Positions 23,065 to 58,686 of a DNA stretch of 64,000 bases are shown here, piece by piece (the stretch's first letter is position 1; each line of letters begins with the position of its first letter). The DNA lies in the NCBI GenBank assembly GCA_012295275.1, contig CM022678.1, positions 16,368,001 through 16,432,000 on the forward strand. The letters run 5' to 3'. The translations under genes and the position numbers were made by a program. The DNA is from Chrysomallon squamiferum. Its lineage: Eukaryota; Animalia; Mollusca. The notes beneath the pieces are model-generated. The model did not search any database. It was not told where the DNA came from and was given only the letters and a program-made list of their open reading frames with translations.

Positions 23065-26000
23065 ATGTAAAGGACAACATGAAGGTAAGTTCTGCTTGAA
23101 TACATGTAAAGTGAAGATACTTGAAACTAGGCGAAGTCTACATTACAAGCTCGGGCGGGCAGAACTAAATCGTAAAATTATTCTTTATGGTTATTAAGTA
23201 ATTTTTATCAAACCAGAAAGCATAAAATTAAAATTCTTTTATTTTTCTAGTATTAGTGTTAAATATAGAAAAGTAATTCTTATCTTCTTCGTTGGTTCTC
23301 AAACAATTTGTTTTATAATAGTTTTTCCTTTTTCATTTCTTACATCCTTGTTTTTAAAAAATATAACTGTCACTATTTCAGAGAGCACAACTTAGCATAA
23401 ACAATAAATATAATGAAACACTCATTATACTTCTAATAACAAACCAACTTAGATCAATAAACATTAGTGAAAACTCGTCAGCGTGACATTTAACAGAAAC
23501 AGACAATTTATAACCCGGCACTGTCATAAGGAAAAGTTTAGTTATTAAGTATAAACAATAAACAGAAACAAAAAATTAATAATAATAATAATAATAATAA
23601 TAATAAATATTTAATTTCCGATGACCCGCCCTATTCTGCTACAGGACCTCGAGCACTCGAGCATGAATATCCAAGTAGGTTTTAAAATAATTTCGAACTG
23701 GAGAACTATTCATTTTTTTTTATATACCTCCTGCAAGAAGAGAATAAATCTGAAGACGCTTGAAACTTGGCGAAGTCGCCATTAATAAAACGTTTATTAA
23801 AAGCTCGGGCAGGCAGAACTAAATCGTGAAATTATTGTTATTTGTTTTAACCTTTTATCGAACCAGAAAGCACATAATCAAACTTCGTTTATTTTTCTAG
23901 TATTTAGTGTCAAATAAAGAAAATTCACTTTTATCTTTTTGTTTTTTTCTCGAACATTCATTTTCTTTTCTTTTTTTCTTAACTTTCTTACTTCCCTGTT
24001 TTTATAGAAATTTATCTGCTATGAAATTAGTTGTTTTCATTTATTTTATCTACGTTCGTCTTCATGATTTCGTAATTTACATATTTTGTCATTGATACCT
24101 CTATCGACAAAAGAATTTGTAAACACAATGTAGTGAATATCTTTAGCTTCAGATGTAATTGTTTAAACACAAAATTAATAATAATAATAATAATAATACA
24201 TTTTTAGTTACTTCAGACTTGCGACCATCCAGTCCTCGTGTTCCAGTAGACAACACATCAGATAAACCAAACCCACCCCGACCAGAAGACCCGTGTTTTG
24301 TTTCACCAGGTATCAAAGTTTTATGCTTCTGTGAGTTGACACGGACTATTTTATTTCTTCATGGGCAAATGCAATTTTCTGTGGAGCAAAGACATCGTAC
24401 TAATTATAAAAATAATTTAAATTATTGTTGTTGTTGTTCTTTCTTGTTGCTGTTTCTCCTTTGGGTTTTTACAGGTTTTTTGTTTTGATGTTTTTTGTTG
24501 GGTTTTTTGTTGTTGGTTTTTTTTTTGGTTGTTTTTTGTATTATTTTGTAAATGAATTCATTGTACTTCATCAACTTACTCTTCTTTTCTGTTCATTTTT
24601 GAAATTAGTTCTTTTCATCTACTTCCGTCTTCATTATTTCGTAATTTACGCTTTTTGACATTGTTATATCTATCGACAAAACAATTTTTAAACTAAACGT
24701 AGCGAATGCCTTTAGATTAAAATATATTCCTTTGTCTTGTGTGAAAAGCATATTTATTACAATTGTGATAGAATTTTTTTTAGTATAAGCAATAAACATA
24801 ATGAAACATTCATTACACGTTAAAGAACAAACAAACTTAGCTAAATACACACTTGTGTAACTTGTCAATGTGATAATTAACAGAACGATACAGTTTATAA
24901 TCTGGTAATATCACAAGAGAAAATTTTGTATGTTAAGTATAAACAAAAATATAAATAAACACAAAATTAATAATAATAATAGCACATGTTTAATTTCAGA
25001 TATTGAATGCAAAATGGCAGATGAAGAAGGTAAGTATGAATCTATCATAGGTAGGTTTTAAAGTAATTTCGATCTGGATAAATATTCATTTCTCATCTAC
25101 GTAACAAACGTAAACTGAAGACACTTGAAACTTGGTGAAGTCGCTATTAATAAAACCTCTATTAAATGCTCGGGCAGGCAGAACTAAATCGTGAAATTCT
25201 AGGTTATGGTTTTAAGTAATTTTTTATCGAACCAGAAAGCACATAATCAAAATTCATTTATTTTTCTAGTTTTAGTGTCAAATAAAGAAAATTCACTTTT
25301 ATCTTTTTGTTTTTTTCTCGAACATTCTTTATCTTTCCATTTTCTTTCGTAAATTTATTACTTCCCTGTTTTTACAAAAATGTATCTGATATGAAATTAG
25401 TTGTTTTCCTTGATTTTATCTACGTCCGTCTTCATGATTTCGTAAATTACACATTTTCTCATTGGTATATCCATCGACAAAATAATTTGTAAATAAAAGT
25501 AAGTGAATTCCTTTAGCTTAAGATGTAACTGTTTAAACACAAAATTAATAATAATAATAATAATAATAATAATGATACATTTTTAGTTACTTCAGACTTG
25601 CGACCATCCAGTCCTCTTGTTGCAGTAGAGAACACATCAAATAAACGAAACCCACCCCGACCAGAAGACCTGCGTGTTGTTTCACCAGGTATCTAAGTTT
25701 TATTGCTTCTGTGAGTTGACACAGACTATTTTATTTCTTCATAGGCATATTAGCGTAAATGCAATTTTCTGTGCAGCAAAGGCATTGTACTAATTATATA
25801 AATAAGTATGTCATATAAACTAGTTTTATTTCCAGTTCATCAGCTTTCTTTTCTTTTCGATTCATTTTCAATTTACTTTTCACTTATTTTATCTACTTCC
25901 GAAATTTTGTAATTTACTCTTTTTGATATTTTTCTATCTACCGTAAAGTGATTTATAAACTAAACTTCGTGAATGCCTTTAGATTAAAATATATTCGTTT

Positions 26001-57217: not shown

Positions 57218-58686
57218 TTATTTAGGTTTATATTCCGCCTCTGGAAGATGCGGGGGTGCTGGTCGGGGTGGGAATGGGTTATTTGGTGTGCTTGGTACTG
57301 GAACTGAAGGAGGTTTGAACGGTCGTGTACCGACAATGGGAAGATCAACTAAAAAATAAAAATTAATTAATTAATTAATTAGGTTTTTAAAAGAATACAT
57401 TTTAAGCTAAAGGCATTCATTACGCTTCGTTTAAAAATTATTTTGTCGATAGATACATCAATGTCAAAAATCGGAAATTACGAATAAGGAAGACGGAAGT
57501 AGAAAAACGAAATTAAAAAAAATAAATTAAAAATTAATCGAAAAGAAAAGAAAGCTGATGAACTGGAAAAATGAATTCATTTAAAATAAAAATAATTTAA
57601 ATGACATATTTATTTATATAATTATTTTGCTCCATAGAAAATTGCACTTGCGTTAATCTCTCACATGAAGAAATACAACAGCCTCTGTGAAAACGCGGAA
57701 ACATCAACTTTCTTGTAATAATTAGAAAATTAAATAATAAATAAATAAAAATAATATAGTAGCAGTATAAAAAAGAGAGTGCCTTAAAACGAATTTTAAT
57801 ATCAGTAATAATTTCTTGAAGATATGACAGTGAAAATCTTTTATTCTGTTATTTGTTTTATAATTTTGCTTTTGAGCTAATTCTGGGGAATGTATCTAGG
57901 GAACAAGACTAACAACGTCAGGCTGGTATTATTTTATCATCAATTTTTTAAACTATTTTGAATCGGTTACGTAACCACTTATGTGGATATTTAATTGCTA
58001 TTATTTCATTGTGCCGTAATAATTTATGCACCTTTTGTTTATTAAATTGCTTGTTGTGTTGGTAAATCGGATTTAAAGCCTGTTTCTATTAACACTGACG
58101 TTGGTTAACCAATATTTAATGTTTATTGTTTATATTGAATATAAATTTTTCCTTATGACAGTTCCGGATAATAAATTGTCTGTTTCTATTAATTGTTACT
58201 TTAACAATTTTTAAGTAATGTTTATTTATCTTAAATTTATCTTATGTTTAATGTGTAATGAGTGTTTCATTATGTTTATTGCTTACATAAACTTTTTTTC
58301 TATCACAATAGCTTTATTTTTCATAAAAGATACTTTTGTAAAACCCAGTAACTGAGTAAGTAAAAATTCTAAAACAAAACGTTTGAGAACTAAGCAAGAA
58401 GAAAAAATGAATTTCTTTATTTGACTAAATACTAATTTGACTAATACTACAAAAATAAATGAATTTTAATATTATGTGCTTTCTTTTTCCATAAAAGTGA
58501 CGTAAAACCATATACAATAATTTCACGTTTTAGTTCTGCCCGCCCGAACTTTTTAATGGCGACTTCGCCAAGTTTCAAGTATCTTCAGACTATCCTCTAT
58601 TCAAGCAGGACGTAGATTAAAAATGAATATTTCTCCAGATCGAAATTACTTTAAAACCTACCTTTAGGTTTTCCCGTTGGTAACAT
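57218..58686 (-). CDS. Putative two-exon Pro-rich micropeptide gene C, 51 aa
   Basis: 58686-58662 (CAAAATG...AAA G|GTAGGT) plus 57348-57218 (TTTTAG|TT...TAA): MLPTGKPKVDLPIVGTRPFKPPSVPVPSTPNNPFPPRPAPPHLPEAEYKPK. Confidence 0.7.

Follow-up and report, generated by a model that had tools for sequence, protein, structure and literature searches.

The locus considered here raises the question of whether the small GC-rich islands dispersed in a duplicated, AT-rich region of the Chrysomallon squamiferum genome are exons of working genes and, if so, what their products might do. The window, that is, the whole stretch of DNA analyzed, comprises 64,000 nucleotides (GenBank assembly GCA_012295275.1, contig CM022678.1, positions 16,368,001 to 16,432,000 of the forward strand; all coordinates below are those of the window) and consists of AT-rich animal DNA whose left part holds an extracellular sulfatase (Sulf) gene. 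A preliminary description, made from the sequence alone, had placed in it six copies (A to F, on both strands) of a hidden family of tiny spliced genes for signal-less Pro/Arg-rich peptides. The islands are bounded by AG and GT, as had been described, and contain 47% GC, compared with 28.5% for the segment from 22.7 to 31.4 kb; the shared donor-side intron block was likewise recovered, after 11 exons and with a mean identity of 81%. RNA evidence shows that two of the six copies, B and C, give rise to spliced transcripts, which would encode peptides of about 50 residues for which we tentatively suggest a role directed at bacteria.

The evidence for splicing comes from sequencing runs matching copy B, five in number and derived from two studies, four of which are recorded as RNA; three RNA runs (X1, X2, and X3) and one run of unrecorded kind (X5) were compared over positions 51930 to 53800. 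The four RNA runs carry the label metatranscriptomic, with no tissue stated. In each of the three RNA runs compared, one contig joins a segment starting at 52302 (X2), 52310 (X3), or 52312 (X1) and ending at 52471 directly to a segment that starts at 52963 and ends at 53198, 53202, or 53247. This junction, taken from contig pieces, is that of a GT-AG intron in phase 1 (52474 to 52964, 491 nt) read with a two-letter shift. In particular, the X2 contig has 455 letters, which is exactly the predicted spliced length, and the X5 contigs run unspliced across both the donor (52410 to 52571) and the acceptor (52544 to 53724). Copy C is spliced as well, because X2 and X3 contain loose contig ends in which the end of its exon 1 is joined to the start of its exon 2; no spliced contig of C was found in X1. 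Thus, the junctions anticipated in the preliminary description, 52473-52965 for B and 58662-57348 for C, occur in three of three and two of three RNA runs, respectively. The RNA runs additionally contain a few intronic contigs of low depth, which points to some pre-mRNA or DNA in the libraries.

Both copies are intact, as previously described, and have two exons. Exon 1 of B (52302 to 52473, plus strand) comprises a 5′ untranslated region (UTR) of about 147 nt, the ATG at 52449, and 25 coding nt ending at the donor GTAGGT, and exon 2 (52965 to 53247) is coding up to the TAA at 53084 to 53086 and continues into a 3′ UTR with AATAAA at 53164. On the minus strand, exon 1 of C (58662 to 58785, 5′ end approximate) has its ATG at 58686 and again 25 coding nt before a GTAGGT donor; the intron (57349 to 58661, 1313 nt) is of the GT-AG type and in phase 1, and the coding part of exon 2 (57218 to 57348) completes the frame. 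The resulting open reading frames (ORFs) have 48 codons in B, with the stop in the last exon, and 51 codons in C. Within the RNA-covered 5′ end of B, the ATG at 52449 is the first and is preceded by an in-frame stop, and a first-ATG ORF of at least 48 amino acids arose in 4.6% of 5000 shuffles of the B mRNA. An upstream exon encoding a signal peptide for B was considered and rejected as far as the contigs reach, since the three contig starts lie within 11 nt, no loose 5′ end occurs, and the in-frame stop precedes the ATG. About 40 nt upstream of the B RNA start, a STAT-type TTCnnnGAA site overlaps a kappaB-like site (52255 to 52275, plus strand).

We consider that B and C are probably translated, judging from the way in which the paralogues differ. 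Seven of the eight exon indels between paralogues are multiples of three; in introns and UTRs, the figure is 9 of 47 (p 0.0004 by Fisher test, from nine pairwise exon comparisons in which A7 and A10 were used twice, the exon limits were known beforehand, and two sets of frame-breaking sequences were left out, namely, the first exons in A and D and the terminal codons in B and C); with four frame-breaking events added, p is 0.011. Furthermore, phase 1 is preserved by the next AG in all three exons that have lost their ancestral acceptor (A2, E, and D3); in the last exon of E, the first AG does not. Exons diverge faster than their surroundings, with 57 of 357 non-CpG sites changed (16.0%) versus 188 of 1926 in the flanks (9.8%; p 0.001). 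Between B and C, pN/pS is 0.52 (p 0.053), and the first third of exon 2 is 91% identical over 46 nt, three of the four changes in codons 2 to 16 being silent; between A3 and A5, eight changes are non-silent and none is silent. Two differences from the window sequence in exon 2 of B, D32Y and H38R, were seen in all four runs compared, and both alleles change the residue and raise the charge (two more positive).

The remaining four copies are damaged, so that two of six are intact. Copy A, on the plus strand, had been described as a ten-exon gene starting at AAAATG, a reading that does not hold for a working gene: exon 1 (22951 to 23084) is transcribed, but its ATG at 23065 is directly followed by TAA, and the same letters are present in X1 and X2 RNA contigs. 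A second ATG at 23079 lies in phase 0, the ancestral donor block is partly deleted, and the distance from ATG to donor is 20 nt, compared with 25 nt in B and C. Downstream, eight internal exons are predicted, at 23645 to 23674 (ancestral start 23621), 24208 to 24309, 25000 to 25029 or 25050, 25587 to 25688, 26352 to 26390, 27148 to 27210, 28963 to 28992 or 29013, and 29992 to 30030, with lengths of 30, 102, 30 or 51, 102, 39, 63, 30 or 51, and 39 nt; the coding part of the last exon (30452 to 30597, ending in TAG) is 79 to 80% homologous to exon 2 of C. At their 3′ ends, most internal exons share the donor block that RNA verifies in B and C, and the internal exons fall into three types, namely, RPSS-type Pro-rich, DPPY/basic Ser-Arg-Lys, and short acidic modules. 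All eight, together with exon 2 of D (48 nt) and the Pro-rich exon of E (93 nt), are multiples of three and free of stops in phase 1. If the predicted splicing holds, an in-frame ATG at 25014, in exon 4, could open about 144 codons. Copy A would have grown by duplication of intron-plus-exon modules, all keeping phase 1, and the four damaged copies are by now likely dying or dead.

Copies D and E had been called broken and truncated, respectively, and closer analysis bears this out. In D (45511 to 48216, minus strand), exon 1 runs from the ATG at 48216 to a GC donor at 48181, 35 nt that are out of frame and contain an in-frame stop; exon 2 lies at 46700 to 46747, and exon 3 (45511 to 45584) has an early TGA. 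The first intron of D begins with GC, not GT (48180 to 48181, minus strand), within an otherwise conserved donor block. The frameshift in this exon 1 lies at a run of A and could be an assembly error. Copy E (50040 to 50593, minus strand) has no first exon; its Pro-rich exon (50492 to 50584) has lost the ancestral acceptor, the next AG being 9 nt further on and in frame, and its last exon, near 50040 to 50143, has been shortened by a deletion.

Copy F (38517 to 41061, plus strand) consists of about 68 units of 24 to 48 nt, all multiples of three, in a Pro-rich acidic frame with no stops, and is trailed by pieces of the family 3′ UTR (41062 to 41520, plus strand). Its earlier description as a gene copy ending in PHLP finds no support, as it lacks a first exon, an acceptor, and a normal stop, and the terminal PHL aligns to the 3′ UTR block of the family and not to the coding PHLP. 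For three of the four units tested, family exons are among the best local matches in the window, with low scores, and F is likely an expanded family exon and probably a relic beside the long interspersed nuclear element (LINE) described below. Its interpretation as a Gly-rich antisense ORF of that LINE is disfavored, since the corresponding frame has three stops versus none in the Pro frame and the strand bias of the array is opposite to that of the LINE; a second antisense frame of F is also open, and openness alone proves little.

Searches for relatives returned nothing that could place the family. The protein-search query was an alignment of six exons, and only exon-sized queries were used, so that with such short, low-complexity sequences a lack of matches is weak evidence of absence; at E values up to 10, none of 206 candidates of 18 to 84 amino acids and none of 7986 candidates of 85 to 2000 amino acids was a homologue, and at E values up to 0.001, there was none in 1.84 billion representatives. 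The protein collection searched included G. aegis (Gigantopelta aegis) proteins. Pfam assigned no family to five exon peptides and the F array (the basic exons of A were outside the scan), the PDB and Rfam gave no matches, the ESM Atlas gave no usable match for two peptides, and a phage search gave none; in the JGI metagenomes, the intron pattern was not found and none of 595 pattern matches was confirmed. Four peptide motifs of the family were absent from the literature searched and from 12 of the 13 supplement files of PMC7142155 (file 13 excluded), and the literature searched on Chrysomallon proline-rich peptides contained only unrelated matches. The statement that no known family can be recognized was thus upheld, and, as far as the searches reach, the copies form an undescribed orphan family. 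The broader proposal, a spliced family of small Pro-rich ORFs without signal peptides, confined to one lineage and subject to birth and death, also agrees with the absence of homologues, the splicing of B and C, and the two intact copies out of six, with translation as its inferred part.

The composition of the predicted peptides offers a first indication of their possible function. The B peptide has 48 residues, 23% Pro, 3 Arg, 4 Lys, a net charge of +5, and no PRP, and the C peptide has 51 residues, 33% Pro, 2 Arg, 5 Lys, a net charge of +4, and one PRP; the label Pro/Arg-rich was therefore right for proline only, and Pro/Lys-rich describes them better. Neither contains Cys, Gln, or a signal-like hydrophobic stretch; the best 8-residue hydropathy mean is 1.65 for B and 1.31 for C, and the N terminus is interrupted by Pro, Lys, and Arg. 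Aromatic residues number one in B and three in C. Since the peptides are small, positively charged, and high in proline, and since the family combines tandem birth and death with exons outrunning introns, we suggest an effector family under outside pressure. Bacteria would be the nearest such pressure, because several peltospirids keep symbionts in bacteriocytes of the esophageal gland (PMC7895826; bioRxiv 10.64898/2026.10.05.756691). The missing signal peptide had been taken to separate the family from antimicrobial peptides of the proline-rich kind, a distinction that does not hold: most lumbricins, which are proline-rich antimicrobial peptides of annelids, lack one, and leaderless release has been proposed for them (PMC13603904), so that its absence is no bar to a defense role.

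Bacterial pressure and the lumbricin precedent led us to prefer, with a probability of roughly one in three, the reading that the predicted signal-less, cationic, Pro-rich products of B and C, about 50 residues long, are leaderless host-defense or symbiont-directed peptides encoded by spliced members of a family that evolves fast and has been duplicated in tandem. The peptides would be made on free ribosomes, would stay in the cytosol or leave it by a non-classical route, as proposed for lumbricins, would meet bacteria either as engulfed microbes or as bacteriocyte symbionts, and would act non-lytically, like proline-rich antimicrobial peptides (PrAMPs).

A number of results weigh against this reading. 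All RNA support comes from one study (P1), in contigs without strand or expression level. The indel test gives p 0.019 without the 23 one-letter flank indels and p 0.20 when this change is combined with the added frame-breaking events; moreover, two of the four first exons (A and D) break the frame, so that the phase 1 earlier said to be kept always holds for the eight internal exons of A, exon 2 of D, and the Pro-rich exon of E. Pooled pN/pS over six pairs is 0.87 and indistinguishable from 1, which gives no amino-acid-level proof of purifying or positive selection, and silent sites too diverge faster than the flanks (pS 0.39 for B versus C). From the indel, acceptor, and pN/pS results combined, the frame looks kept and most residues look free, except in the first third of exon 2 in B and C. 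Conserved immune promoter motifs for the family are unsupported, as the STAT-like and kappaB-like sites upstream of B are not conserved in C or D. Neither Pfam nor the PDB gave a match to an antimicrobial peptide; the F array is acidic (net −44) and A has both basic and acidic modules, unlike PrAMPs; and the BCR and NCR peptides of other hosts of intracellular bacteria use signal peptides, which B and C do not. The criteria for PrAMPs given in PMC11678341 are at least 25% proline, a net charge of at least +1, antimicrobial activity, and intracellular targeting of DnaK or the 70S ribosome. The charges of both peptides and the proline content of C lie within these limits, the proline content of B falls narrowly under, both peptides are Arg-poor with at most one PRP, and the ribosome-binding motif YLPRP named in the same paper is absent from B and C. 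Hence, the family may work like a PrAMP, but we do not class it as one, given the position of B under the proline cut-off and the fact that two of the four criteria are defined by assay.

Other explanations have to be weighed against a leaderless defense or symbiont-directed role. The peptides could be basic proteins of small size that serve the germ line or sperm, being produced in the gonad and evolving fast for reproduction, with the Ser/Arg/Lys modules of A binding DNA or acting as nuclear signals; this alternative, which we regard as possible though unlikely, draws on the fact that the peptides are signal-less, small, and basic, on the Ser-Arg-Arg/Lys-Arg-Lys runs encoded by exons 6, 7, and 9 of A, and on abalone sperm proteins as a gastropod precedent for recurrent duplication with exons faster than introns (PMC9022041, where the intron comparison is a cited phrase). 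However, the intact copies B and C are without basic modules and contain only 14 to 15% Lys plus Arg, the five Pro-rich exons scanned have no Pfam match, and the likeness to basic proteins of mollusc sperm is putative. With similar reserve, it could be supposed that the spliced transcripts of B and C have ceased to be translated, or never yielded a useful product, their open frames being leftovers in non-coding or decaying genes. A pN/pS of about 0.87, the non-silent nature of two out of two alleles, the damage in four of six copies, the transcription of A despite the stop directly after its ATG, and the absence of the peptides from all protein collections searched would fit this supposition, whereas indels and acceptor shifts that preserve the frame, the predominance of silent changes in the first third of exon 2, and the similar lengths of the first-AUG ORFs of B and C speak against it, as do the better conservation of introns than of exons and the lack of an Rfam match.

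Cytosolic ligands that would tune SH3, EVH1, WW, or profilin interactions in host cells through proline motifs are an unlikely alternative. No signal peptide would be needed there, and proline motifs do occur: a single class II PxxPxR in B, a single FPPxP in C, one of class I in A, and numerous polyproline runs in F; yet the motifs differ between B and C and are expected by chance at 23 to 33% Pro, and fast divergence is a poor fit for a conserved host partner. We regard as very unlikely that the products are structural, cross-linked small proline-rich epithelial proteins or intracellular helpers of shell or scale formation. The vertebrate SPRR proteins, which function in cornification, provide the comparison here. 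The family shares a signal-less, Pro-rich, two-exon layout in a tandem cluster and includes the repeat-expanded copy F, but neither Gln nor Cys is available for cross-linking in B and C, and the F repeat is not among the low-complexity proteins listed in one scaly-foot snail supplement (PMC7142155, file 10). Finally, segmental duplication extends over the entire region, on both strands and with the introns, the region contains a LINE and other transposon remains, and the X5 depth indicates related sequence elsewhere, so that a dispersed repeat or transposon with GC-rich exon mimics might be envisaged. Such an origin is highly improbable, and for B and C it is largely refuted: exact GT-AG splicing is found in RNA and not in X5, the exons are more frame-conserved than the flanks (these being the two points on which the preliminary description had let its proposal depend), and a Pfam scan of five exon peptides revealed no transposon family.

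Within the leaderless defense or symbiont-directed reading, a narrower proposal, distinctly unlikely as a specific claim, would be that leaderless Pro-rich peptides in the cytosol of symbiont-bearing cells, diversified by exon-module duplication, restrain or steer intracellular chemosynthetic bacteria. If true, they would provide chemosynthetic symbiosis with a peptide effector of host origin, comparable to the NCR and BCR peptides but devoid of both signal and cysteines. In peltospirids, symbiont control has been described in terms of recognition receptors and lysosomal digestion (PMC7895826); the word antimicrobial is absent from the main text of that paper, and its proteomics used gels cut at a lower limit of 10 kDa. 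The family peptides are too short for such gels and for the usual gene callers, and two concrete candidates of 48 to 51 residues are now at hand for synthesis and assay. Even under the alternative explanations, the locus clearly displays an orphan family of small genes in the course of birth and death, in which exons evolve faster than introns and one copy has acquired ten modules through phase-1 exon duplication.

Between about 19 and 62 kb, downstream of the Sulf gene, the window forms a mosaic of duplications in both direct and inverted orientation. The Sulf exons encode a protein 79% identical to that of G. aegis and 63% identical to those of Haliotis cracherodii and Littorina saxatilis (3 of 120 listed homologues compared); this single gene suggests a peltospirid or related neomphaline vent snail other than G. 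aegis. The DNA from the Sulf 3′ end to copy A (19153 to 22771) recurs, duplicated and inverted, upstream of other copies (42045 to 43495, 50605 to 51735, and 59466 to 61796), and the duplication unit would therefore be several kilobases long and include sequence adjoining the Sulf 3′ end. A decayed LINE on the minus strand (33258 to 38516), recognized by Pfam and composition, interrupts the mosaic at 33.3 to 38.5 kb; it contains endonuclease, reverse transcriptase, and RNase H, has 38-bp and 33-bp minisatellites toward its 5′ end, abuts F, and lies outside the peptide family. No target-site duplication was seen for it. Two further short, transposon-like pieces between family copies (54100 to 55020 and 44540 to 44910), which we take to be a hAT-like C-terminal piece and an integrase-like piece, received no support from a Pfam scan.

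Directly behind the 3′ end of A lies an isolated fragment of a fibrinogen C-terminal domain (30948 to 31217, minus strand; PF00147, E 2e-8). An 87-bp tandem array follows (31435 to 32331, plus strand; 9.3 copies, 96% alike), with an open frame of 298 codons corresponding to a portion of an SRCR domain (PF00530 in Pfam, E 3e-7), and this minisatellite apparently derives from a piece of an immune-receptor exon. In the Sulf gene, a 73-bp tandem array (17633 to 18268, plus strand; 8.7 copies, 97% alike) repeats the end of an exon and its donor site into the intron, and a 26-bp array (3967 to 4729) likewise repeats an exon end with the donor into the intron. Furthermore, two homologous Sulf exons (13655 to 13830 and 15158 to 15255, plus strand) both carry a Cys...HWRTPP motif; they occur in tandem in the H. 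cracherodii protein, and one of them is found in a G. aegis isoform and in the Littorina protein. The pair is likely a duplicated cassette exon.

Compared with known peptide systems, the family shares single features with several. Lumbricins are similarly small (57 to 76 amino acids), contain proline and a cationic patch, and mostly have no signal peptide (PMC13603904, PMC11678341), but they have 10 to 15% Pro, 12 to 14% aromatic residues, and conserved motifs, whereas B and C have more proline and few aromatics, sit in a tandem birth-and-death cluster with modular exons, and gave no sequence match to them in database searches. The myticalins, modiocalins, and Cg-Prp resemble the family in being lineage-restricted, hypervariable multigene families of molluscs, with pseudogenes, a phase 1 intron, and a linear cationic Pro-rich core; they differ in their signal peptide, dibasic cleavage site, anionic pro-piece, and Arg richness, none of which is found in B and C (PMC5577615). 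The non-lytic PrAMPs of insects (apidaecin, drosocin, metchnikowin, and oncocin) are Pro-rich and cationic like B and C, C having its one PRP in common with them, and the start PIVGTRP recalls by eye, as a lead, that of metchnikowin as printed in PMC11678341. In contrast to these, B and C are Arg-poor, about twice as long, without YLPRP, signal, or pro-peptide, and without a Pfam or PDB match.

The proposed role has its closest parallel in the BCR peptides of aphids and the NCR peptides of legumes, lineage-specific families of small peptides in hosts of intracellular bacteria, which carry four to eight cysteines and are secreted via a signal peptide, whereas B and C have neither (PMC6594739). 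Between the family and the abalone sperm fertilization proteins no sequence match was found. The latter are folded, secreted acrosomal proteins. Their gastropod origin, duplication, and fast diversification are shared with the family (PMC9022041). By the features tested, B and C are thus not myticalins, lumbricins, BCR, or NCR peptides; the family appears to belong to a familiar kind, that of fast-evolving small-peptide clusters, and to be unusual within it for its lack of a leader and its phase-1 modular build.

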